DNA of 64,000 bases, taken from assembly GCA_016927065.1 (NCBI GenBank), contig JAFGNJ010000020.1, forward strand, positions 10,923-74,922. The letters are read 5' to 3'. Positions 2,187 to 59,845 of the stretch are shown here, piece after piece. How positions within the stretch are numbered: position 1 is the stretch's first letter; every line of letters starts with the position of its first letter. A program made the position numbers and the translations under genes. Origin of the DNA: Deltaproteobacteria bacterium (GTDB lineage Bacteria > Desulfobacterota > B13-G15 > RBG-16-54-18). Below the pieces are notes generated by a model. The model ran no database searches, had not been told where the DNA came from, and saw nothing but the letters and a program-made list of their open reading frames with translations.

Positions 2187-3287
2187 ATGAAAGTAGAACT
2201 GAAAAAAGGGATCTACTGGGTCGGGGCCATAGACTGGACGATTAGAGATTTCCACGGGTACAGCACTCATAAGGGATCTACCTATAACGCCTATCTCATC
2301 GTGGGTGAAAAGGTGGCTTTGGTGGATACAGTCAAGGCCCCCTTTTTTGAAGAAATGATGGGGCGGATCAGTGAAATCATGCCGCCGGAACGGATAGACT
2401 ACCTGATCGCCAACCACGTGGAGATGGATCATTCGGGCTCTTTACCCCTCTTTAAAAAGGCCCTCCCAAAGGTGGAGGTGTTGTGCAGTCCCAGGGCCAA
2501 GGGGGAATTGAGTCTCCACTATGGCGATGCAATTCCTTTTAAGGTAGTCAAGACAGGGGATATCCTGGATCTCGGGGGGAAAACCTTGACCTTTGTGGAA
2601 ATCCCTATGGTCCACTGGCCGGACTCCATGGCAACCTACGTCAAGGAGGATAAAACGCTCCTGCCCAACGATGCCTTCGGTCAGCACATAGCCTCCGCAG
2701 AGCGGTTTGACGATGAACTGGGATGGGATGCCATCCGCCCTGAGGCGGCGAAGTACTACGCCAACATTGTCATGCCCTACGGCCCACAGGTCCTCAAGGC
2801 CCTGGAAGCATTGCGGGATATCGAGATTGAGGTCATCGGACCGAGCCACGGTGTCATCTGGCGAAAACATATTCCCGAGATCGTAGCGACCTATGAAAAA
2901 TGGGCAAAAGGTGAGACTGAAAAGCGTGCCCTCGTCGTCTACGATACCATGTGGGGATCTACGGAGAAGATGGCACAGGCCATCAACCGGGGGGTTATGG
3001 AGGAAGGGGTGTCGACCAAGTTGTACCGGCTACGCGTCTCGGATAATTCAGACATCGTCCAAGAGCTCCTGGAGAGCCGGGGCCTTGTACTCGGTTCCCC
3101 CACATTAAACAATGGCCTCTTCCCCTCAGTGGCAGAGTTCTCCTGCTATATCAAGGGACTCCGTCCCAAGGGGAGGCTAGCCGCGGTCTTCGGCTCATAC
3201 GGCTGGGGTAAGGGTGCAGCGACCAAGGCCCTCACGACGGACCTCCAGGCCGCGGGTATGGAGGTGATGGAAGAGCTGCAAGTATAA
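2187..3287 (+). CDS. roo: Flavodiiron protein (rubredoxin:oxygen oxidoreductase, ROO/FprA type)
   Basis: An N-terminal metallo-beta-lactamase-like diiron domain (HVEMDHSG) is followed by a C-terminal flavodoxin-like domain. It is directly downstream of rubredoxin. Confidence 0.85.
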   Translation: MKVELKKGIYWVGAIDWTIRDFHGYSTHKGSTYNAYLIVGEKVALVDTVKAPFFEEMMGRISEIMPPERIDYLIANHVEMDHSGSLPLFKKALPKVEVLCSPRAKGELSLHYGDAIPFKVVKTGDILDLGGKTLTFVEIPMVHWPDSMATYVKEDKTLLPNDAFGQHIASAERFDDELGWDAIRPEAAKYYANIVMPYGPQVLKALEALRDIEIEVIGPSHGVIWRKHIPEIVATYEKWAKGETEKRALVVYDTMWGSTEKMAQAINRGVMEEGVSTKLYRLRVSDNSDIVQELLESRGLVLGSPTLNNGLFPSVAEFSCYIKGLRPKGRLAAVFGSYGWGKGAATKALTTDLQAAGMEVMEELQV

Positions 3288-3378: not shown

Positions 3379-3618
3379 ATGGACATTAAGATATTTACGA
3401 CACCGACGTGACCCTTCTGTCACAAGGCGAAGGAGTTCCTTTCACAACAGGGAGTGAGTTATGAGGAACGTGATGTTACCCAGGACGCGCAGGCCCGGGA
3501 CGAGATGGTTGAGCTTTCGGGCAGGATGGCCGTACCGGTGATCGTCATCGATGGAGAAGTCATCGTAGGTTTTGATCAAAAGACAATTGAGGAAAAATTA
3601 CGAGCACCAGAAAAATAG
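3379..3618 (+). CDS. Glutaredoxin/NrdH-like small redoxin with an in-frame TGA at 3409-3411, read as a putative selenocysteine (active site T-P-T-U-P-F-C)
   Basis: ATG 3379 is preceded by an AAGGAGAGG ribosome-binding site. The translation is MDIKIFTTPT-(TGA)-PFCHKAKEFLSQQGVSYEERDVT...VPVIVIDGEVIVGFD..., a glutaredoxin fold with Sec in place of the first Cys of CPYC. A possible 5-bp stem-loop lies at 3413-3433. Confidence 0.6.
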
Positions 3619-3655: not shown

Positions 3656-4576
3656 TTGAATACGCACGAGCTCATTATAGTAGGGGCAGGACCGGCAGGC
3701 ATAACCGCTGGGGTCTATGCCGCGCGGAAGCGCATGAAGGTTCTGATGATCGCCGTGGATGTCGGCGGGCAGGCATCGCTAAGCTGGGATGTCGAGAATT
3801 ACCTCGGTTACCAATTCATTACCGGCCCGGAACTTGCCCAGAAATTTAAGGAGCACCTTGATCATTTTGATGTGGAGTTGAGGGAGGGCGAGAAGGCGAC
3901 ATCAGTAGAAAAATCGGGTAACACCGTGAACATCACAACAGATAAGGGGGAATATGCCGCGCAGACGGTAATCGTTGCTTCGGGAAGGAGACCCAGGAAG
4001 CTCGGGGTAGAGGGTGAGGATGAATTTCAGAACAAAGGAATCACATACTGTGCGACCTGTGACGCCCCGCTGTTCGCAGACATGGATGTTGCCGTCATCG
4101 GTGGAGGTAATGCGGCCCTCGATGCCGCAATACAATTAACAAAAATTGCGAAAAAGATATACCTCTTAGAAGTAAAGCCCCAATTGACGGCAGACAGCGT
4201 AATGATAGAAAAGGCCAAGGAAAGCGGCAAGATAGTCTTTAACACCGACACAAAAGTGAAGAAGATCTACGGGGATAAGCTTGTTCAGGGCATAGAAATA
4301 GTCAAGGGTGATACGGTGGAAGATCTCTCTGTCGGCGGCATCTTTGTCGAGATAGGCTCAACACCCGTATCCGATTTCGTCCAAGGGGTAAAGAAAGATG
4401 AGAGGGGAGAAATAATAATCAATTGCAGCTGTGAAACCGATATCCCCGGGATCTTCGCTGCCGGTGATGTCACCAATGTCTTTGCCAAACAGATTATTGT
4501 GGCCTGTGGCGAGGGGGCAAAGGCAGCAATTGCAGCCTTTGATTATGTGAATCGAATGGGAGGAAAAGCAGCATGA
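3656..4576 (+). CDS. trxB: Thioredoxin-disulfide reductase-like FAD/NAD(P) oxidoreductase
   Basis: It has a GxGxxG motif at the N-terminus, a CATC redox-active motif (CATCDAPLF) and a second dinucleotide fold (VIGGGNAALD). A TTG start follows a GAAGGA ribosome-binding site. Confidence 0.7.
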   Translation: MNTHELIIVGAGPAGITAGVYAARKRMKVLMIAVDVGGQASLSWDVENYLGYQFITGPELAQKFKEHLDHFDVELREGEKATSVEKSGNTVNITTDKGEYAAQTVIVASGRRPRKLGVEGEDEFQNKGITYCATCDAPLFADMDVAVIGGGNAALDAAIQLTKIAKKIYLLEVKPQLTADSVMIEKAKESGKIVFNTDTKVKKIYGDKLVQGIEIVKGDTVEDLSVGGIFVEIGSTPVSDFVQGVKKDERGEIIINCSCETDIPGIFAAGDVTNVFAKQIIVACGEGAKAAIAAFDYVNRMGGKAA

Positions 4577-10615: not shown

Positions 10616-11191
10616 ATGATGAAAAAAAGGGTGCTGTTATTCGTTGCTCTTGCCGTCTGCCTTGTTGCGCTTAATGGTGTACTTGTGGCCGCTGAGGAAT
10701 CGACGATCACTGGCACAGTCCTCGCGCCGATAAAACTTCCCGTTCCCCAAGATCCCACAGCCAAAAACTACCTGGGGCTTACCGAAGAAGGATCGTTCGC
10801 TCTATCGCAGATCAAGGCCCAGGTGGTTATGATTGAAATCTTCAATATGTACTGCAACAACTGTCAGCGGGAGGCACCACGCGTAAATGAGCTCTATCAA
10901 CTGATGAACAAGGATCCAAAGCTAAAGGGGAAGATCAAAATGATAGGAATCGGTGTAGGGAATACCCCCCTTGAGGTCGAGGTATTCAAGAAGACCTACA
11001 AGGTCGCCTTTCCCCTTTTCCCCGACGCGGATTATGCCATCCACAAGATATGCGGCGAGGTGAGGACACCGTATTTCATCGGCGTAAAGATCAAGACAGA
11101 CGGGTCACTCAGAGTTTTTTATACCAAAGAGGGTGGTTTCCAAGACCCCGCCCAATTTCTAAAAATAATAGTTGCTTTATCAGGACTCTAA
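10616..11191 (+). CDS. Secreted thioredoxin-fold (TlpA/ResA-like) thiol-disulfide oxidoreductase
   Basis: It has a signal peptide (MMKKRVLLFVALAVCLVALNG) and a CxxC motif (YCNNCQ) in a redoxin-like context. Confidence 0.5.
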   Translation: MMKKRVLLFVALAVCLVALNGVLVAAEESTITGTVLAPIKLPVPQDPTAKNYLGLTEEGSFALSQIKAQVVMIEIFNMYCNNCQREAPRVNELYQLMNKDPKLKGKIKMIGIGVGNTPLEVEVFKKTYKVAFPLFPDADYAIHKICGEVRTPYFIGVKIKTDGSLRVFYTKEGGFQDPAQFLKIIVALSGL

Positions 11192-13914: not shown

Positions 13915-16900
13915 TTACTGGGGCTTCCCCATGTGTACGAGGACCCGATGTTTGATAAAGTCCCGATCCAGTGGGATCACCCTATCCCGTACACGCCGAC
14001 CGTCCAGCTCCACCCACGCAACGCCCCGCTCATAGCCTTCCGGGTTCTCGACCCTGATCTCGTATATCGCTTCGCCGTGACGATAGCGCAGGCTGAAACC
14101 CTCCCACCAGCCGGGGATGACCGGATTTACCTGCATGCGATCCCCCCGCACCTGCAAGCCCAGGATCTCTTCAACCCAGGCTCGGTACATCCACGCAGAG
14201 GCACCCGTATACCACGACCAACCACCGTGACCGATCCTCCCGGGCAATCGGTATACATCAGCCGCGATCACGTAGGGCTCGATCCCGTAGCGCCAGACTG
14301 TTTCCGGATCACGCGCCCGCTCGATCGGGTTAAGCATGCGCATCATTTTCACCGCACGCTCACCATCCCCTCGACGCGCCATGGCCATGGCGAACCACAG
14401 GGCGGCGTGAGTGTACTGGCCTCCGTTCTCGCGCACCCCCGGCGGGTACCCCTTGATGTAGCCGGGTGACGGCTCCGATTTGTCGAAAGGAGGTTCGAGG
14501 AGCAGCACGAGACCTTCATCCTCGCGAACGAGATGTCTCCATGCCGATTCCAAGGCACTCTTTGCACGATCCGTGTCGGCGGCGCCGCTCAGCCACGCCC
14601 AGGATTGGGGCAGGGAATCGATCTTCGCCTCTTCATTCGCCGAAGAGCCAAGCGGCGTGCCATCGTCGAAGATCGCCCGCAGATACCATTCCCCATCCCA
14701 GGCTTTTTGTTCGACAAGCTTAATCAGCGCCTTCCGTTTTTGCTGATAGGTCTTACGCAGATCCGGCCGATCCAGGAGGTCAGCCATCTCGACCATGCCC
14801 TGCAGCACATCCGCCAGGAACCACGCCAGCCACACGCTCTCCCCTTTGCCCCCGGCACCCACAAGGTTCATCCCATCGTTCCAGTCTCCCGTTCCCATCA
14901 GGGGCAACCCGGTGGGCCCAACAGTCAGCCCGCGCGAGACCGCTCGCTCGCAGTGCTCAAACAGCGTACCGCGTTCCCGCGCGATCTCCGGTGTGGAGAG
15001 GGCTTCTCGCTGATCTGCTTCCAACAGAGGAGCGTTGAGGAAGGGAACCGTCGTATGCAGGATGCCCACATCACCGGTGATCCTGATGTAGTGAGCGACG
15101 ACGTAGGGAAGCCATAGGGGATCATCGGAGATCCGCGAGCGGATACCTGCGCCGTTCGGTGGATGCCACCAGTGCTGGACATCGCCTTCCTTGAACTGGC
15201 GGCTCGCCGCAAACAGGATGTGCTCTCGCGCCAGGTCGGGATACGCGTAGACGAAAGCCATGACGTCCTGCAATTGATCGCGGAAGCCGAACGCGCCGCC
15301 GGGCTGGTAAAAGGCGGAACGCCCCCAGATCCGGCAGCTCAGACTTTGGTACAGCAACCAGCGGTTGATGAGGAAGTCCGCTGCGAGCTCGGGGGTATGG
15401 ACTTCGATCGTGCCCAACAGGTCATCCCACCAGGCTTTCATTTTGCTTAGAGAGGTTTCGAACGCCGAGCTTTTCCGGTAGGTTTGAACCAGCTTATGGA
15501 CCTCCTCCGCTGATCCGGCCTGGCCCACCATGCACGTAATCTCAACCTTCTCACCGGGAGCCAGTTCGACCCTGACCTGCAGCGCGGCACAGGGGTCCAA
15601 TCCCGCTCCCGTCCGCAGTGAAAGCCTGATCCGCTCCATCGCCACGGGGTTCGCCATCGAGCGATTGCGCCCCAGGAAGGATGTGCGGTCGCCGTTGTAT
15701 GACTCCACAGGCGGGCTGATGGCCGCGAAGGCCACACGATCCCCATACTCGGGGTGGTAACGATTTCTGGCAAGCAGGGCCTGCGCTTCGTCATCCCAGG
15801 TGGTCACGACGTGCATCTGAGAAGACTCACGGTTCTCCCCCAGTGTCCACTCTACGTAATACGTAACAGACAGTTTGCGATGCCGAGCGGAGTCGTTTCT
15901 CAGCCGCAGCCGCTGCAGTTTGATCGGCTCTCCCCCTTGCTCGTCTACGGGAACGAAGACCAAGAGCTCCTGCTCGATCCCATTGCTATTATGCTCGAAT
16001 GCCGTGTACCCTGCCCCGTGCCGTGTCCGATAGGGGGTCTTTTCGCGGATCGGCGTCGGGGTCGGTGTCCAGTAGACACCGCTCTCCTCATCCCGAATGT
16101 ACAACGCCTCAGACGGTGGATCCATCACGGAGTCGTTCGACCATGGCGTCAGGCGATTGCGCTGGCTGTTGCCATACCAGGTAAAGCCGGCCCCTGTTTC
16201 GCTGAGTACTGTTCCGAAAGTCGGGTTGGCGATGACGTTTACCCAGGGCGCGGGCGTGTGGGTGTCTGGTCCGAAATAGATTGCGTATTCACGCCCGTCC
16301 GGGGTAAACCCACCCAGGCTATTGAAGTAGGGTAATTCCAGGAAGGGCAGCGCAGGCGAAGGCTCCCGGGGGGCACGCTTCTTGACCATGGGTTCCGGCA
16401 TCTCGGGAGCCTCCGCAGGCATACCCAATTGCTGGGGCAATGTGCCGCGGGCCGCCACCAACTCCACACTCGCCGCTGCCCTGAGCAGCGTCAGATCTTC
16501 CTCAGGCATAAGATCAGCGCTACGCACGTAGACACCACCAGACTGATCGATCCCCGCGTGCATCGCATGCGTCTGGATGAGGTGCTCGAGTCGTTCGCGC
16601 AGGGGCTGTTCATAACCGCTCGCTTCCTCATTGAGGATCACTAAGTCTGCCATTAATCCGTGATTATGCCAATAGGCATGCGCCTGGAGCATTTGACGAA
16701 CCAGGGTGATGTCCTGCGCTTCACCGATGGTGACCAGGGCGATCGGCACGTCGCCCGAGATTCCGTAGGGCCACAATCCGGCTTGGCCCTTGCAATTCTT
16801 TTCGATGCATTCAATGGGAGGCCGCAGGCTGGGATTGGGAAACAGCAAGTGGCTTGTCAGCTGCTGGAAGCGGCGGGCCTCGTCGGGCTGGATACGAAGC

Positions 16901-19900
16901 AGCCGCAACTCGAGTTGGGCGGAGGCCCAGGCGACATCCATCGCCCGATCGATCGGAGGGAGTTCTCCGTACTTGTCCATCAGTCTCAAGACCTGCTGGC
17001 GTGTTTCGCCGGCGGCGATAACTAGGGAAACCTGGATGCGCCGGCCCGGACCGAGAGTCACGCTCCGCCGCAGGCTGAGGATCGGGTCGAGAACAAAACC
17101 CTGGTTGCTACCGAGCTCTTGAAAGACACCCATGGGACTGGCGAGCGTCCTCCCGCGTCCGATGAACCGCCGCCGGTCGGTATCGAACTGCAAGGCGTTA
17201 TCCTCGACTTGTTCGAGCGTGAAGCGGTGCGCAATATAGATGGGCGGGTCGTCATCTCCGCGAGGCCTGCGGCACGCGAGAAGCGCCTGATATTCGGGCA
17301 CCGCTTCGGTCTGGATGAACAGCTTGTTAAAGGCCGGATGCTGCCGGTCAGCGTTGTGCGGCGCCATTGAGAGTTCGACGTAGCTTGTGAGCTCGAGGCG
17401 GCGGGTGCGAACGGACCGGTTGATCAGAGTGATCCGCCGGATCTCAACGTCATCTTCCGGCGAGACGATGACCTCGGTTTCGGTTTGAATGCCGCTATCG
17501 GTGCGTCGGAACACGGCACGATCGAGCGCAAAGTTGGCGGAATACGCCTCGACCTTCCCGCCGGTTGGATGATACGTATTGGACCACAAACGATCCGAAT
17601 CGGCTTCATGGATATAGCAGAAGGTTCCCCACGGATCCCGCGTCCGATCAGATCTCCAGCGGGTAATCTCATAGTCTCTCCACCGGCTGTACCCGCCGCC
17701 GGCGTTCGTGAGCATCAGGTTATAGCTACCATTACTCAGCAGTTGGGTTTTGGGTGTAGCGGTGTGTGGCGTATCGAATTTGCTCACTGACGGCACCACT
17801 TCGCCGACGTCCGTCACCGAAGGCGCCCTCTCACGGGTGGTGATGTGGTGGAGCGGAGGAAGGACAGGGATGCGTTCATGGAGCAATGGCTCGACCGCAC
17901 GCACGCGTGCGTCGGCATGAAAACGGCGTTGGATGATATTACCATGGATGAAGTTGGTCAGCGACAGAAAACTCATTCCTTGATGATTAGTCATATACGC
18001 TCGTACCATCACCCCGCGCTCGCCCGGGCGGCCCGGCTGCCGGCTGAAGTCCATCGCTTCGTAATAGCCGTAATCGTTCAAAAGCCCCAACTTAGCTAAG
18101 CGTTTCAGATTCTGCACGGTCTCTCTCGGTGCTATATTCACCGCCAGAAGAGTAGCATAGGGTGCTACGACAACCTCCTCCAAGCCGCGTTTTAATCCGA
18201 GCTCCGGCACACCGAACGCCTTGTATTGATACGTCTTGTTGATGTCCAGGTCTCCAAAGGCGGACTCCGAGATCCCCCACGGCACATGGAGCTTGCGACC
18301 GTAGGCGATGTGGATCGCCACAGCTTCCCGTGTTGCTTTATCCAGGAGTGAATTCCAGTACGTTTTTTGTAAAATGAGCGGCATGAGATATTCGAACATG
18401 CTTCCTGTCCAGCTGAGCAGCACCCGGTGCCGGCCGATCGCGCCGTAGGGCCGGCTCATTGAGAACCAATGCTCAGCGGAGACGTCACCGCGCGCAATGG
18501 CGACAAAACTCCCAAGCCGCGCCTCACTCGCCAGGAGATCGTAATAGGCGCTATCCAAGCGCCCGTCGGAAACATTGTAGCCGACGGAGAACAACCGGCG
18601 TTCGGAGTCATACAGGAAGGGCATGTTGATCGATTCGGACAGTTCGCGTCCATCCTGGACCAGGCGCTCGCCCAAAGCAAGCATTTCACCCGCCAACCAT
18701 TGCGCCTTTGCAAAGGCCTGCAGAAGGCGGCTAATCCACTCGAAGAGGGGGCCTGTTTCCGAGGGAGAAAAGTCCCGAATCGATTGCAGGGTCTGTATAC
18801 AGCCTATATGCCCTTTGGCGAGATCGCGAAGCGACGGCGCGTGATACAGATTCTCGCGCAACGCGAGCACGGCCTCCCTGCCCAGCAAGGCGATCTCATC
18901 TTCCGCTTTTTCATCAATGATTTCGATCCAGGCGAGGTAGCGATCCACAATCTCGCGCCAGGCCAATACCTGTTTCTCCATCTGCCCGGCCCAATAGGCC
19001 GCACGCGATTCACCTCCGGTTTCACCGTCTGTTTCACCTCGGGTTCCCCCTCCGGGTTCCCCAGAGGGTCCGCCGGAGGCGGACTTACGTTTCTTACGGT
19101 AAAGACCTTTTATGCTGTCTTCTAGTTGCCGCAGCAGGCGCAGCGCATCGGCGATGCGATCCGGTGGATTTTCACAACTACGCATCAGTTCGTCAAGGCG
19201 GCGGGCATTGAGAGCGGAAACGCCTTCCTCTTCGACGACCTGCTTCAAGATTTCACCGGTGTCCCGCAGACCTGCAAAGGCTTTCGCATCCAGCATGGGG
19301 TCTTGCATCAAGTCGTCAAGACCTTGCTCCAGGGCCCAGAGGGCGCCAAGCAGGTTTCCACTGTCCACCATGGATACGTAGCGAGGTTCGAGAGGGGTCA
19401 GGGTTTTAATATCGTACCAATTCAACAGATGACCCTCATAGCGCTCGAGTTTGCCGATCGTCTCCATAGTACGCGTCAACTTTTCGATGGCCTGATCCAT
19501 CGTCAGATATCCGAAATCATGGGCGGCGAGCGCGCTGACCATCCAGAAACCGATGTTGGTTGGACTGGTACGCATCGCTAGTTGATTCTTATGGGAGAAC
19601 TGGTAATTGTCCGGCGGAAGCCAAGAGGTGTTTTCTCCGACAAAATCAGAGAAATACCGCCAGGTTCGTCGTGCAACCTTTCTCAGGAACCGCACATCCT
19701 TTTCGGGAAACAGTAATCGCTGTGACCTCGCGTGCGGTCTGAGGGTCAAGAGCCAACCGATCAGAGGGGATAAGAACCACAATACGAGCCAGGGACCGGC
19801 CAGGAAAATGTTCGACGGCATCCAGCGCTGCACCGCCCAACCCATGATCACGCTGAAGATGCTCGCTAGGCCCAGCAACATCACGAACGTCTGCACTCGA

Positions 19901-22900
19901 TCCGGGGCATTTCCATGCATCACCTGGGTTGACGTCCACTCGAGCAACCCTCGATGAGAGATAAGACGACGATACCAGACCCGCAGAATGGCATCCATCG
20001 CCAGCCAGGCCTGGCGCGGAAGCAGTGCAGCTTCGACAATCGCCCGCAGCAGGTCGTGCGCCAATCGTAAGAAGGAAAAGCCCCGTGGCCCCTGGCCGGT
20101 GGTCGCCCATATGAAGGGCTGAACTAAGGGGTGAAAGAGCAGCTGCATGGCGACCACAACGGCAGATATCCACACCATCTCAGAGGAAGTCAGCCAGGAC
20201 GCTATCAGTAAGCCCAGACTGGTCGCAGGTACCAGGCTACGGCGCAAGTTGTCGAAGACCTTCCAGCGGTCGAACCAGGAGAGCGGGTTTGGTCCTCGGC
20301 CTCCTCCGGGCAGGGGAACGCGCGGCAAAATCCAATCCGCAATTTGCCAATCACCGCGAATCCAACGATGCTGCCGGCTGGTGTAGCTCATGTAATCCTG
20401 CGGGAACTCATCATAGAGCTCGATATCACTGGCGAGGCCCACGCGAACATGAGCACCTTCGATCAAATCATGACTGAGCAATTGCTCTTCGGGAAACGTG
20501 CCGGAAAGCACTCGACTGAAGACACGCACGTCATAGATGCCTTTGCCATGATAGGAGCCTTCGCCAGTGAGATCCTGATTGACGTCGGAAACAGCCTTGG
20601 TATAGGGGTCGATTCCGATTGGGTCCGAGAAGAGCCGGCTGAATGGCGTGGCGCTCGTACTCGGCAGGGAGGGGCTCACGCGCGGTTGGATGATCGCATA
20701 GGAGCCGGCCAGGATGCCACCTTTGTCATCGAAGCGCGGCAGGTTGAGCGGGTGGGCCAGGGTTTCAACCATCCTGCGGGCGGTGTCGTGCGGTAGCTGC
20801 GTGTCGCTGTCCAACGTGATGACAAATCTCACATCGGACAGGCGATCCGGGTCGCCGACGTACACCAACCGATTGGCATCTTCAGGCCGCGTTCCATCAA
20901 TCAGACGATTGAGTTCTTCCAGTTTCCCGCGTTTACGCTCCCACCCGATAAATTTCTGTTCGGATTCACTCCATTTTCGCTCTCGATGGAAAAGGGAAAA
21001 ACGTTCGCCGCCATACCGGTTATTGAGGGCTTCGATGCTTTCGATCGTCGCTTGGAGCAGGTGTTCGTCCTCCTCGCCATGCGCTTGCTTTGAATCCGCA
21101 TAATCCGAGAAGAGGCCAAAGAATACATTGTTTTCTTTGTTAGTGAGATATCTGAGCTCGAGCTTTTCCGCCTCGGCCCGGATAGTCTCCGCATCAACCA
21201 ACAGCATGGGCACAACGACGAGCGTTCGAAATTCATCAGGAATCCCCGAGTCCTCGAAATTCATCTTCGGAAGCGTGCGCGGCGGAAGTAACTGCGTGAC
21301 CAGGTAATTCACAACCTCGAGCGAAAGCTGGCTAATCGGAATCAGCAAAAGAAGCGCTAGCAAAAGCCGGATCACGGGTGTCTGCCCGCGCATACCAAGC
21401 AAAACGATCAGGGAGATGAATACCGCGGTAAAAAAGCCGAGCCCAAGAAAGTACACTGCAGCATGATGGCGGTAGACCCATTGCACAACGCGGAACCGGG
21501 GCGCCTCGCGACATCGTATGAGCTGCGCCAGCTCGTGTCTTCCTTCTCCAACCAGATATGTCCCGACATGGATACGCCGTTCATCCTTCACCCCTTTATG
21601 GGCCGCGCGCGTCGCTAGGTCAATGGCGCGCTGGGCGACTCGTTCTTCCGCCTGGCCTGACCTGCGGGCGAGTTCTTCAATCGTCCTACGATACCGATCT
21701 CGCGTGTCGAAATCCATCCGGGGATAGACTCCCGAAGGGTCCATCCGAAGCAACTGCTCCACTCGACTGATCTGTTCGAATATCTTCCTCCAATCCAACA
21801 GGGCGAGTTGTCGCAAACTGGTGAACGCATTCCCGATCGATATCTGATCCTTCATCTGGCGGTTTTGCTCACGAAGGTTGAGATCGCCCAGGGATTTTCG
21901 AAACATACGCTCGAGCCATGCCTTGACCGGCACCAGCGCGGCTTCTTGATCGTAGAGGTTATCGATCAGTTGAAGACTGAAATAGGGACTCGGCTTGGGT
22001 TGCGATTCGGCAAGTTCGGCAAGGATCGAAAGGATTGAGAAAGGCTGGTTGGGGTCTCGCCGATTGGCCGTAATGAGCCTGTTTGCCCAGAAGTCGGCAA
22101 TCTCACGTTCTCGCAGCTCTGTCAGGGCTCTTTCGGCGAGATACAAGAGGCCCTCGACCAATGCCGCGCGCAGCATCTGGGGGACGGCCCAGAGTTCGCC
22201 AATCGACAATGGGCCGACTGATTGATAGGCCTTGATGAACGCGAGGATGTTCTCCCTATCCAGACGCAAGTCCGCATGTGAGACCAGTTCCCGTGCGAGG
22301 CCGTAGATGCGCGGCAGACCACGGTAGGGCCCGCTGGCCAGTGCCGGCAGCTCCTGGTAATAGCGCCGGGGAAGGTTCAACTGCACTTCGCGCACGTTAC
22401 TCTCGATGATGTACTCATTGTCGAGGAGCCACTCGGTGGTTGGAGGCGTACTCTGACCCAGTCGACTCGCTTCGGACAGATCCAGGCAAACACGATGGAT
22501 CCATCGCCGGGTTTGTTCGAGCCACTTGAGCAGTTTGATGTTCCGCCGGGGATTCGTGCTCACCTGATGGTCCTTGGCGAGGCGCTCAGCATACTCCTGG
22601 ATCTGTACCCCAGAGAGCGGACTCTCGAGGCTCGCCGCCTCTCCGATGAAATCCTCTCGCTTCGGATGCAGAAAAAATATGGCGGGCGGGATCTCGTCGC
22701 TTTCCTGCAACACTGCCATGGGGGAGCGCAATGTTTCGATCGGTGCCCGGAGAATCAGGACGGTCTCCTCGGATACCAACCAGCGCGCATGATCCTCGAG
22801 CAGCCTTCGTTCGACGCCGAACCTCGATCGTCGTATCCATGCCACACTGAAGAAGATTCCGGCGATCCCACCCGCAAGGCCCGGAATCAGGGTAGACAGG

Positions 22901-23157
22901 CTTCCAAACGGAATCGGCACCGACCACTGAAGGCTCATAGCGGCAGCCCCAGCGATGAAGCCGCAGAGGAAGAAACCCGCGGCCACTCCAAAGGCCCGGA
23001 GCCGCAGGAAGGGATCTCGAGTTTGGATATGTCCATCCGCTGTCTTGCTCATCAAGGCAACGCGCCGGAAACCCCTCCGCTGCAACCCCTTGAGGGCCCT
23101 GCGAGCCGCATCCTGTTTTGCGAAGTAGCCTATGAGAATGCCTGCTCTCACGTCCAT
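13915..23157 (-). CDS. ndvB: Cyclic beta-1,2-glucan synthase-like giant protein (GT84 glycosyltransferase region plus GH94 glycoside phosphorylase region), 3080 aa
   Basis: A GT2-like core ([19 protein letters not shown]) is flanked by TM segments. The C-terminal half has GH94 signatures ([33 protein letters not shown]). Confidence 0.75.
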   Translation of the reverse strand: [3080 protein letters not shown]

Positions 23158-41760: not shown

Positions 41761-42810
41761 CTACTTTTCAAATAATTTCAAAAACTCTTCATATCCTTCT
41801 TTTCCCAGATCCGCAACAGGGATAAACCGCAGCGCGGCGGAGTTGATGCAATAGCGAAGACCGGTCGGCGCAGGGCCGTCAGAAAAGACATGGCCAAGGT
41901 GTGAATCCGCGTTCTTACTTCTCACCTCTGTCCTCACCATCAGCAGCGACCTATCCTTTTTTTCAACGATATTCTCCGGCACCAGAGGCCTGGTAAAACT
42001 CGGCCACCCGGTTCCGGAGTCGAATTTATCCTGTGAGCTGAAGAGCGGCTCACCTGAAACAATATCGACATAGATCCCCGCTTTTTTGTTGTCCCAGTAT
42101 TCGTTGTCAAATGGCCTCTCAGTGCCGTTTTCTTGCGTGACATGGTATTGCAAAGGCGTCAGTCTCTTTTTTAATGCGCTTATATCCTTTTCCCCCTTTG
42201 TGCCCCAGATCTTTGCTAAAAATTGATCTCGGCCGGAACCGTTTCTATACAACTGATAGTGCGATGGATTTTTCTTGTAATAATCCTGGTGATATTCTTC
42301 AGCCTTATAAAACGTCGAAGCGCGAATGATGGGGGTAACAATCGGCTTATCGAAGAGCTTTTTCTTTTCCAAGGCCCGTTTTGATTCCTCAGCCAAGCGC
42401 TTTTGCTCGTTATCAAAATAAAAGATGGCTGTCGAATACGCCTTGCCTCTATCAGCGAATTGGCCGCCGGGATCAGTTGGATCTATCTGCTGCCAAAATA
42501 CCTCCAACAGCTGAGTATAGGTGATGTTCTGGGGATCATATACAATTTCCACGGCCTCACTATGGCCCCCTGAGGCGTAATCTTTATATGTGGGATTTTT
42601 ACTTGTACCGCCCGTGTAACCGGATGTAACTGAAACTACGCCTTCTAATTCTTCAAATGATTTTTCCATGCACCAAAAACAGCCCCCCGCAAACAGGGCC
42701 TTTTTGAGCTTTGATGTATCTTGCGCATGGGTGATGCTACCGAGTAATAACGGAAAAAGAAACATTGCAATTGCAGCTATATACTCCAGTTGTATATTCA
42801 TATTCTTCAT
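41761..42810 (-). CDS. msrAB: Secreted bifunctional peptide-methionine sulfoxide reductase MsrA-MsrB fusion
   Basis: An MsrA GCFWC motif ([12 protein letters not shown]) and an MsrB C-terminal domain ([11 protein letters not shown]) with an N-terminal signal peptide. Confidence 0.85.
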
Positions 42811-43014
42811 GTCGCACCTCACTCCTTGTAATTTTAGTATTAATTAAAATATAAGCACGAAATGGTCTAAACGAAGAAAAAAGATCGGTCCGAGTGGAGA
42901 ACCCCCCACTTTCCTCACATAGTAATTCCTGGTTGACAGAGGAATAGCAGCAGGATATCTTCGGGTACTGTAGCTCAGTATTGCAAAAAGTCAAAAAAGC
43001 AAGGAATCGCCTAA

Positions 43015-58231: not shown

Positions 58232-59578
58232 CTAGTGCACCAGTTTTTTATCTCTCTCAAAATTAAAGCCGTCATCCTGGTCAGGGGTGTGACATTGGAG
58301 GCAGAGATCTTGATTGACGACAGGGGGTGCATTCTCCTTTTGAGACGTACCCGATTGGAACTCGATATGCCCCTCCATCCTCCCGTGACACTGTGTGCAC
58401 TGAATCCCTGCATACTCAGGCGTCTTTCCCCACGAGACAAAGCCACCCTTGAGGTAATAGGTGGTGTGGCAGATTATACATTCTGGATTCTGGTGTTCAT
58501 TTGTCTCAATCAGCGACTCAATGGCATGGGCATGGGGTGTTTCCTTCCATGTGTTGTAGATATCACTGTGACAACTTTGACAATCCGTCGCCCGCAAGAC
58601 CGGTGGAAACTGGGCAGCAACCTCCTCATCATGCTTTTTCGTGAGTTCCTTTGACAACTGTGCAACACGTTCAAGATACCGTGCATATGTACTAATTAGG
58701 AGGGGATCTCCCGGAACAGTTTGATCGAGAGGAATAAGTTTGTTAGCAAAACTCCACGTCCCTCCGGTGCGGTAGACATCCACCCTGCCGAGATATTGAC
58801 CCTCGCTCCCCGCACAGAGCAGGAGCGAATCATCGATATTCACCGGCGTTTTTAATTCTGCCAAACAGTGAGATAGAATCACGATGTCTATACCCTTATG
58901 TCTTTTTACAAATGCGCTTGTCTGGGACATATCTCCATGAAGCATGGCGACGATGAGATCGGCATTTTTTCTTGCGTAGGCCAACTGCTCCAATGCGGTC
59001 TTTTCGGAAGCATCTAGTGCCCAGTACATTTTTGCCGCTTCCGGTATGTGGCCGCCGACAAAGAAGCTTACTATACCAATACTGACTCCACCCCTGCGGA
59101 GGATAAGGGGCTTGCTGCACAGCCTTGTGCCCTGAAATGATACATTGAGGGTTGCCAAAGGGACCCGTGAGGCCTTGGCTTTCTGCAACGCGTTATACGT
59201 ATCTCGTTGCATCAACATTTCGCGCGTGCCTATACTGATAGCGTCATATTGCATCTGGTGGAACGATTCGAGGAGCGCCTCGAACTTGATCTCACCCTGC
59301 TGACTGTATATAGGAGCAAACTCTCCGGCATCAATCACAATCGTTGGAATATTTTGCCGTCTGACCTCATTGATCTTGGTAGCTCGCCGAGCTATTCCTC
59401 CCAGGGGGTTGCTCCCTCAGCCGCAGGGTTCAAGAGTGCCCTGTAGATCGTTGGTGTAAAAGATAGCTATGTGCTTTTCATGTTGCTCACAGTACGAACA
59501 AAAATGATTATGCAGCAACACCATAATAACCCCAGCGAGAAGTATGGTTGCGAATAACTTTATCGAGCTTCGCTTCAT
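58232..59578 (-). CDS. Secreted fusion of a 5'-nucleotidase-like metallophosphoesterase domain with a C-terminal tetraheme cytochrome c domain. It has an in-frame TGA at 59417-59419, read as a putative selenocysteine (motif E-P-C-G-U-G-S), though it could instead be a nonsense-mutated pseudogene.
   Basis: The frame is continuous from ATG 59578 through the TGA to stop 58232. The signal peptide is MKRSSIKLFATILLAGVIMVLL. Metallophosphoesterase motifs (IAIFYTNDLQG, VIDAGEF) flank the TGA in the same frame. The C-terminus has four CxxCH motifs (CQSCH, CIICH, CTQCH, CLQCH). Confidence 0.5.
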
Positions 59579-59845
59579 TTCTAACTATTCTCCTTATCTT
59601 GGAAATATTTCACTGTTATTGTACCTTAAAAACAACGCTTGGAGAAGGTAAAATAAAAGCTAAGCGTGTATGCTCAAAGCTTAGCACAACAAAAAACAAG
59701 AAAAAACTTTCTATTATTTTATAGCAACTTCTCAAAAAAGTCCTTTTTATTGCCTAGTCTCAGTTATTAAATAATATAATAAATTTAAACGCCTTTACAA
59801 TTAAAAATAATCCCCTTATAATTTTATTAGCGGAGTTTAATCACT

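Follow-up and report, generated by a model that had tools for sequence, protein, structure and literature searches.

The question raised by this locus is whether an in-frame UGA ends a gene or is a codon within it. The locus lies on the minus strand of the 64,000-nucleotide stretch analysed here (the window), which covers positions 10,923 to 74,922 of contig JAFGNJ010000020.1 from a Deltaproteobacteria bacterium (assembly GCA_016927065.1). A mechanical list of open reading frames (ORFs) splits the gene into a 53-residue ORF (59417–59578) and a 368-residue ORF (58232–59338) that begins at an internal GTG. The frame is interrupted once only, by the TGA at 59417–59419. This is codon 54, in the context E-P-C-G-U-G-S, where U stands for selenocysteine (Sec). 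Comparison with related sequences indicates that the gene very probably encodes one 448-residue selenoprotein, of which the 368-residue call is a fragment. The features that define the gene are as follows.

58232–59578, minus strand: full read-through coding sequence of 448 codons including Sec54, with the stop codon TAG at 58232–58234

59590–59595, minus strand: Shine-Dalgarno-like AAGGAG, 11 nt 5' of the ATG at 59576–59578, read from the sequence

59498–59578, minus strand: N-terminal signal or anchor of approximately residues 1–27, MKRSSIK followed by a hydrophobic stretch, read from the sequence

59417–59419, minus strand: UGA codon 54, read as Sec within the invariant motif Cys52-Gly53-Sec54, based on the conserved TGA and on relatives with Cys

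The initial annotation, made from the DNA letters and their ORFs, had noted that the ORF track starts at the internal GTG while the frame continues upstream to the ATG at 59576–59578. It placed a signal peptide at that ATG and described the TGA as the single interruption, directly beside a cysteine. All of these coordinates are correct and the interruption is confirmed in the sequence. A hydrophobic N-terminus equivalent to that in the window is present in every read-through homologue. In tblastn searches, related loci align over residues 1–448, through the TGA. The locus could instead hold two separate genes, one for a 53-residue exported peptide and one for an independent protein initiated after the stop, for example at the GTG at 59338. 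Both the ORF list and the public annotation pipelines divide the locus in this way. However, the downstream product would have no signal peptide, although heme must be attached to its four CXXCH motifs in the periplasm; attachment of c-type heme requires export. Motif I and the first beta-strand of the UshA fold described below would also be missing from it, and the alignment runs through the stop both with solved 5'-nucleotidases and with full-length Cys-type relatives. In addition, the called starts vary among homologues, giving products of 368 to 397 residues, and inspection of the sequence 5' of the GTG reveals no Shine-Dalgarno site comparable to that of the ATG. An arrangement of two genes is therefore very improbable.

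The protein databases were queried with the read-through protein, with C in place of U. This gave 45 clusters of 41–94% identity and 340–397 residues, covering 76–87% of the query. All 45 are N-terminally truncated, starting after the UGA position and within ~30 residues of it. The DNA of relatives was taken from four metagenome-assembled genomes of Thermodesulfobacteriota/Desulfobacteraceae (reference genomes) and 22 metagenome loci, giving 26 loci. Each of the 22 loci with sequence around the UGA position (42–74% protein identity, 16 distinct nucleotide sequences) has a TGA in the same alignment column, and TAA or TAG is never found there. In these loci the conserved TGA is preceded by (E/A)(P/T)-C-G and followed by x-x-(N/D)-x-(L/M)-G-G-(I/M/L)-A-R-R-A. 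Where a locus reaches far enough, the open frame can be followed upstream to a hydrophobic signal sequence and its start codon. Among 18 read-through sequences, Cys52, Gly53, Sec54 (always TGA), Gly60, Gly61, Arg64 and Arg65 are invariant.

These observations bear directly on the possibility, raised in the initial annotation, that the locus is a recent nonsense pseudogene in which the TGA is disabling and the gene is decaying. The gene is indeed intact apart from one in-frame stop, and gene callers split the locus. However, the same TGA occurs in 16 distinct sequences at identities down to 42%, so that a recent nonsense mutation and a sequencing error are both excluded. The related loci differ at many sites, amino acids on both sides of the TGA are strongly conserved, and decay would not preserve the upstream 53 codons and the stop for so long. 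The probability that remains for a pseudogene is negligible.

More distant relatives show what takes the place of the UGA. Full-length relatives carry Cys in this column (P0046, ENCGC; P0049 and P0052, EPCGC). A second search seeded with P0046 returned 408 relatives. C-G-C is present in every one of ~50 full-length sequences among them, and many of the remainder are cut off at the same point. Three of the truncated relatives, from other subclades (L027–L029), carry EPCG-TGA in their DNA. Within the window clade, the Sec form occurs in every member found, each annotated as a truncated protein. A comparison of orthologues at this column for Cys or Sec codons had been suggested as a check, and TGA in 22 of 22 loci together with Cys in distant full-length relatives is its outcome. 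The conserved TGA column, the conservation of protein on both sides of it and the homologues with Cys also favor the earlier view that the UGA is better read as Sec than as a sign of a frameshift. Judged from these comparisons, decoding of the UGA as Sec is very likely.

Read-through with a standard amino acid (Trp, Cys or Gly), by near-cognate suppression or a reassigned code, would give a protein of the same length. The inserted residue is not decidable from sequence alone, and no gene for Sec machinery was seen in the 64-kb window. On the other side, TGA terminates 12 of the 32 long, domain-supported ORFs of the window, so that the genetic code is standard and not reassigned. The presence of Cys in this column of the homologues is the classic Sec/Cys pairing, a conserved hairpin with the geometry of a bacterial selenocysteine insertion sequence (bSECIS) lies 3' of the codon, the family is curated as a selenoprotein (NF041198), and the window contains a second gene of Sec type. 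Insertion of a standard residue is accordingly regarded as improbable.

This second gene, at 3379–3618 on the plus strand, had already been pointed out as Sec-like. It encodes a glutaredoxin (Pfam PF00462, E 4e-25) with an in-frame TGA at 3409–3411, in the sequence T-U-P-F-C (a UxxC redox motif), and is likely to be a second selenoprotein gene, based on this sequence. The presence of a UxxC glutaredoxin gene in the same window supports a Sec-decoding host. The hairpin 3' of its UGA has a predicted energy of –20 kcal/mol over 62 nt (z = –2.0), and its ACAA loop is without the usual G. The gene is part of an oxidative-stress cluster, with a catalase (20–1372), a flavodiiron-type protein (2187–3287) and a thioredoxin-reductase-type protein (3656–4576).

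The candidate signal for Sec insertion at the locus itself is a short hairpin within the coding region.

59378–59398, minus strand: SECIS-like hairpin, GG / AA bulge / UAGCUC / GGC / GAGCUA / CC, from the RNAalifold consensus

For RNAalifold, the 75 nt from the UGA onward were aligned in the 16 distinct sequences. The result is a single consensus hairpin in which core columns 26–31 pair with columns 35–40, and a 2-nt bulge separates this core from two extra G-C pairs (22:42 and 23:41) at its base. In the window the core UAGCUC-GGC-GAGCUA corresponds to 59380–59394, with the apical loop (59386–59388) starting 28 nt after the UGA. The triloop is of the form G-[G/U]-[C/A], being GGC in the window and GUC or GGA in relatives. 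The hairpin AGCTC-ggc-GAGCT of the initial annotation, with 5 bp and a 3-nt loop, is thus present and is longer than described (6+2 bp).

None of the 16 sequences lacks any of the six core pairs. The paired fraction of cells is 94.6%, falling to 20–53% once the partner columns are shifted. At pair 27:39, three sequences have G-C and one has G-U in place of A-U. Across the 18 read-through genes, aligned by codon, a single codon is used throughout in only 4 of 124 conserved degenerate columns, and these include the TGA and the stem codon for Ala63 (GCT). Elsewhere in the stem, the third base of Arg65 is invariant and the third base of Ala66 covaries with the codon for Ile/Met62. The synonymous positions of the loop (third base of Arg64 and first base of Arg65) are both variable. 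Selection on the hairpin structure is supported by this combination of maintained pairing, compensatory change, fixed synonymous sites in the stem and a variable loop. The published rules for bSECIS elements specify a loop of 3–9 nt with G[G|U]N, an upper stem of 4–16 bp and a distance of 16–37 nt from the UGA (PMC13188914). The window hairpin lies within these ranges in its loop, its stem (6 bp plus two G-C pairs) and its spacing (28 nt), and so fits three of the four rules; the fourth, on energy, is considered below.

In other subclades the residues after the UGA differ from those of the window clade. Two of their members, L027 and L028, have hairpins of other sequence with G-rich loops, 21–25 nt 3' of the UGA, and the hairpin of L029 is less clear. 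The stem of the window clade consists of the palindromic codons of Ala-Arg-Arg-Ala (GCU CGN CGA GCU). True 5'-nucleotidases already have this motif, which suggests that codon fixation turned an existing protein motif into the RNA element. Two other pairings, a second helix CCCC/GGGG (alignment columns 12–23) and an alternative GAGC/GCUC pairing, are found in some sequences and not in the clade of L014, L018 and L020, and both were discounted. No Rfam family matches anywhere in the window at gathering thresholds, and relaxing the search to E up to 10 near the UGA brought up noise alone.

The family match that is by far the best for the window protein is NCBIfam NF041198 (UshA_like_PCGU, 'UshA-like (seleno)protein'), with E 3.8e-71 and 240.2 bits when U is read as C. 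The aligned stretch covers profile positions 6–266, with a second stretch also reported, and members of the clade align to positions 349–519, the cytochrome half of the profile. The P-C-G-U/C motif of the family, which immediately follows motif I (the first beta-strand of the UshA fold), is present in the window protein. So is the family architecture of a UshA-type N-terminal domain and a C-terminal c554-like multiheme domain. Based on these sequence features, the window protein is assigned as a divergent, mis-annotated member of the known UshA-like PCGU selenoprotein family. The score of 240.2 bits is nevertheless below the curated cutoff of NF041198 (275 bits), and by this cutoff the window clade falls just outside the family; the core members P0046, P0055 and P0061 score 373–401 bits.

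The family itself is not new. The initial annotation had proposed an undescribed, perhaps novel selenoprotein family, a claim that does not stand, since NF041198 already names the family and the COG0737 CxU family has been tabulated since 2008. In that year the UshA-like CxU family of COG0737 was reported from the Global Ocean Sampling selenoproteome with 76 Sec and 92 Cys forms (Zhang & Gladyshev 2008, PMC2398784). It is listed as UshA-like, COG0737, CxU in the tables of reviews from 2022 (PMC9312934) and 2026 (PMC13188914). The literature searched contains no functional study of this family.

The N-terminal two thirds of the protein carry the domain from which the family takes its name.

58679–59476, minus strand: UshA/5'-nucleotidase-type N-terminal domain with a degenerate dimetal site, residues 35 to ~300, from the Protein Data Bank (PDB), NF041198 and the AlphaFold2 model of a relative

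In a phmmer search of PDB sequences, residues 35–266 align continuously across the UGA with 5'-nucleotidases (3ivd, E 3e-11; CD73). The structure that was modelled is that of the Cys-type relative P0046, not of the window protein itself, using AlphaFold2 with a 70-sequence alignment (mean predicted local distance difference test (pLDDT) 87.5, predicted template modelling score 0.83). With this model, Foldseek finds E. coli UshA and human CD73 at E ~1e-24 over ~320 columns, which span the N-terminal metallophosphatase domain and the long linker helix. The metal site is a different matter. The read-through protein has no match to Pfam Metallophos (PF00149) at E < 1; Pfam finds the cytochrome domain only and nothing in the N-terminal two thirds. 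Within the clade, variation affects each of the columns aligned to the dimetal ligands and the catalytic His (canonical motifs DxH, GD, GNH(E/D), H and GHxH): in motif I the Asp column holds D, N, A, F or S and the His column Q, R, E, D or S; in motif II the Asp column holds G, D or E; in motif III the Asn column holds T, E or I and the His column R, P or S; and in motif IV the His column holds H, Y, S, W or A. The window protein reads D-L-Q, G-E and G-T-R-E at these motifs. It is strongly supported that the UshA fold has been kept and the phosphoesterase dimetal site has not. The conserved metallophosphoesterase domain of the initial annotation is thus upheld as a UshA-type fold that continues across the UGA, but not as a phosphoesterase, given the missing Metallophos match and the variable ligands. 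The C-G-U triad lies in the loop directly after motif I, and by homology with the UshA fold this loop would form the rim of the former active site.

The C-terminal part of the protein is a multiheme cytochrome, recognized earlier as a tetraheme cytochrome c.

58235–58591, minus strand: c554-like tetraheme cytochrome c domain, residues 330–448, from Pfam PF13435 (Cytochrome_C554, E 1e-14) and PDB 1bvb

58568–58582, 58466–58480, 58385–58399 and 58289–58303, minus strand: CXXCH motifs at C333, C367, C394 and C426, respectively, from the sequence

In the phmmer search of PDB, residues 331–401 align with cytochrome c554 (1bvb). The Cys and His residues of all four CXXCH motifs are invariant across the 45 homologues. 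The last conserved residue of the family is His448 (58235–58237) in the window clade and several others (..K-L-V-H), and Cys (..V-K-C-P) in the core of NF041198. This difference may represent a switch of a distal heme ligand, bis-His versus His/Cys. Ligation of heme by His/Cys is typical of sulfur-metabolising cytochromes.

It is strongly supported that the UGA at codon 54 is decoded as Sec with the help of the short coding-region hairpin 28 nt downstream, and that the product is one exported polypeptide. From these parts a mechanism can be proposed, in which the protein would be a periplasmic oxidoreductase. Its nucleophile would be Sec54, attacking a small substrate; the adduct would then be resolved by Cys52 with formation of a selenenylsulfide, and the four hemes would pass electrons between the Cys/Sec centre and the respiratory chain. 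Three weak hints, namely a resemblance to SoxB, occurrence in Desulfobacterota and the precedent of MccSep, make a sulfur or other chalcogen compound the most plausible class of substrate. MccSep/ExtKL (GSU2937-2936) of Geobacter sulfurreducens is a pentaheme selenoenzyme that acts as a polysulfide reductase, in which a His/Cys heme and a nearby Sec catalyse the reduction of polysulfide (PMC13510729).

The same precedent suggests another arrangement for the selenoprotein, with Cys or Sec ligating or overlying a heme iron in a heme-chalcogen site like that of MccSep in place of a free selenenylsulfide couple. Beyond the CXXCH motifs, the only histidines invariant across the 45 homologues are H349 and H404, two for four hemes. 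The C-terminal position, His in the clade and Cys in the core, also hints at variable axial ligation. However, one of the hemes of cytochrome c554, the closest relative of the heme domain, is five-coordinate by nature, and a shortage of distal ligands is thus not remarkable in itself. The loop in question has a pLDDT below 50 in the P0046 model, which therefore provides no structural information on it. Such a heme-chalcogen site is possible, though unlikely.

A more far-reaching proposal is that the window clade forms a functionally distinct group of periplasmic selenoenzymes, in which a Cys-Gly-Sec centre linked to the four hemes has taken over the pocket of a former dimetal hydrolase. The enzyme would then reduce or oxidize a compound of sulfur, selenium or arsenic, in a respiratory or detoxifying role not recognized so far. 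The proposal is made because Sec is present in every member found, the C-terminal residue is His where the core has Cys, and the phosphoesterase ligands are lost. If it were true, the clade would be a second, independently evolved heme-linked selenoenzyme beside MccSep. It should be considered speculative, and rather doubtful. The explanation that best accounts for the whole of the data is the simpler one of a single exported 448-residue member of the UshA-like PCGU family, with Sec inserted by means of the hairpin, a UshA fold without its dimetal site and a tetraheme domain; overall, this explanation appears highly probable.

Several observations weigh against this explanation. Some concern the hairpin. 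On its own it is weak in the window, where the 21 nt have a predicted energy of –6.0 kcal/mol (–5.8 to –9.6 in relatives), above the bSECIS limit of –7.5 kcal/mol; the span meant by this energy rule is ambiguous, and the 60-nt stretch from the UGA reaches –15.2 kcal/mol. When the 86 nt around the UGA are folded as a single sequence, the result is no better than for shuffles (z = 0.06), and the hairpin emerged only from the comparative analysis. Covariation is limited to one core pair, plus the pattern at synonymous sites. The stem codons also encode GG-I-A-R-R-A-T, a protein motif ancestral to true 5'-nucleotidases. With respect to the Sec machinery, ARAGORN detects no tRNA, including tRNA-Sec, in the 64-kb window, itself a small sample of the genome, and Pfam scans of 24 other ORFs of the window reveal no selA, selB or selD. 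As for family membership, the window clade (the window protein and five members) scores 210–247 bits on NF041198, against the cutoff of 275. The Cys-x-Cys loop, because of its low pLDDT in the P0046 model, has no defined placement relative to the hemes. Finally, synteny across 18 loci identifies no neighbour kept across subclades that would point to a substrate.

The neighbours themselves are varied. In the window an EamA transporter gene lies downstream, and the other neighbour, a PGA_cap gene, is transcribed divergently. In the 18 loci the EamA transporter is found downstream only in the window's closest relatives. In one subclade a small PilZ-domain gene adjoins the selenoprotein gene (L014, 2852–3274; L013, 7964–8323; also L016 and L018–L020). 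It lies upstream in most of these loci and downstream in L013, and is absent from the window and its closest relatives. Elsewhere in the window, the ORF at 13915–23157 on the minus strand (3080 residues) contains glycoside hydrolase family 94 supersandwich and catalytic domains and a glucoamylase-like domain, and from its sequence it resembles a cyclic beta-1,2-glucan synthase. The ORF at 41761–42822, also on the minus strand, encodes a fused MsrA-MsrB methionine sulfoxide reductase (PMSR and SelR domains). It is apparently uninterrupted; Sec forms of MsrA are known.

The value of the window gene lies in a correction of annotation and in a candidate for biochemical study; as a discovery it is ordinary. 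At least 45 protein clusters in public databases are likewise truncated and need the same correction, and automated pipelines will go on splitting the genes of this clade because the NF041198 cutoff misses it. MccSep, described in 2026, is the long-sought polysulfide reductase of Geobacter, so multiheme selenoproteins can be key respiratory enzymes. Because this unrelated protein proved to be one, the UshA-like family is a reasonable target for experiment.

The window protein can be compared with several known systems. Its clade and the core of NF041198 are alike in the PCGU motif after motif I, the signal peptide, the UshA-type domain and the tetraheme c554-like domain. They differ in that the family has both Sec and Cys forms, whereas the members found in the window clade are Sec forms only. 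The window protein shares ~25% identity with core members such as P0046, has ~448 residues against the 519 positions of the profile, and, like the rest of its clade, has a conserved C-terminal His in place of the conserved Cys of core members ('...VKC-P'). With UshA, CD73 and other 5'-nucleotidases (PF00149 and PF02872) it has in common the fold of the N-terminal domain and the helix start GG-[IV]-A-R-R-A-T. However, the C-terminal nucleotide-binding domain of UshA is replaced by the tetraheme cytochrome, and the positions that align with the canonical dimetal ligands of UshA and CD73 (Asp, His, Asp, Asn, His, His) are not conserved in the window clade. In the PDB alignment, a snake-venom 5'-nucleotidase related to CD73 has two Cys in the loop aligned with C-G-U; these form a disulfide, as in CD73. 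The SoxB thiosulfohydrolase profile (TIGR04486) gives a weak match, with E 1.5e-12 for the window protein and 1e-12 to 1e-23 across the family. NF049981 ('UshA-like (seleno)protein family 2', CxxU), a second family of UshA-fold selenoproteins, also matches weakly, at 56.5 bits. This is far under its cutoff of 140 bits, its motif is CxxU rather than CxU, and its model of 262 positions is without a cytochrome domain.

A plausible functional analogy is to MccSep. Like the window protein, it is a periplasmic multiheme cytochrome c from the Desulfobacterota with one Sec, whose UGA splits the annotated gene, and both would use a Sec nucleophile fed by hemes. The two are built differently. MccSep has five N-terminal hemes and carries its Sec (U325, motif DGUP) in a C-terminal Ig-like domain, without a UshA fold (PMC13510729), whereas the window protein has four CXXCH motifs and its Sec at residue 54. 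There is no homology between them outside the heme motifs. At E up to 0.01 the MccSep model NF040886 does not match the window protein, and its 28.8-bit match to the relative P0049 is weak and falls in the cytochrome region.

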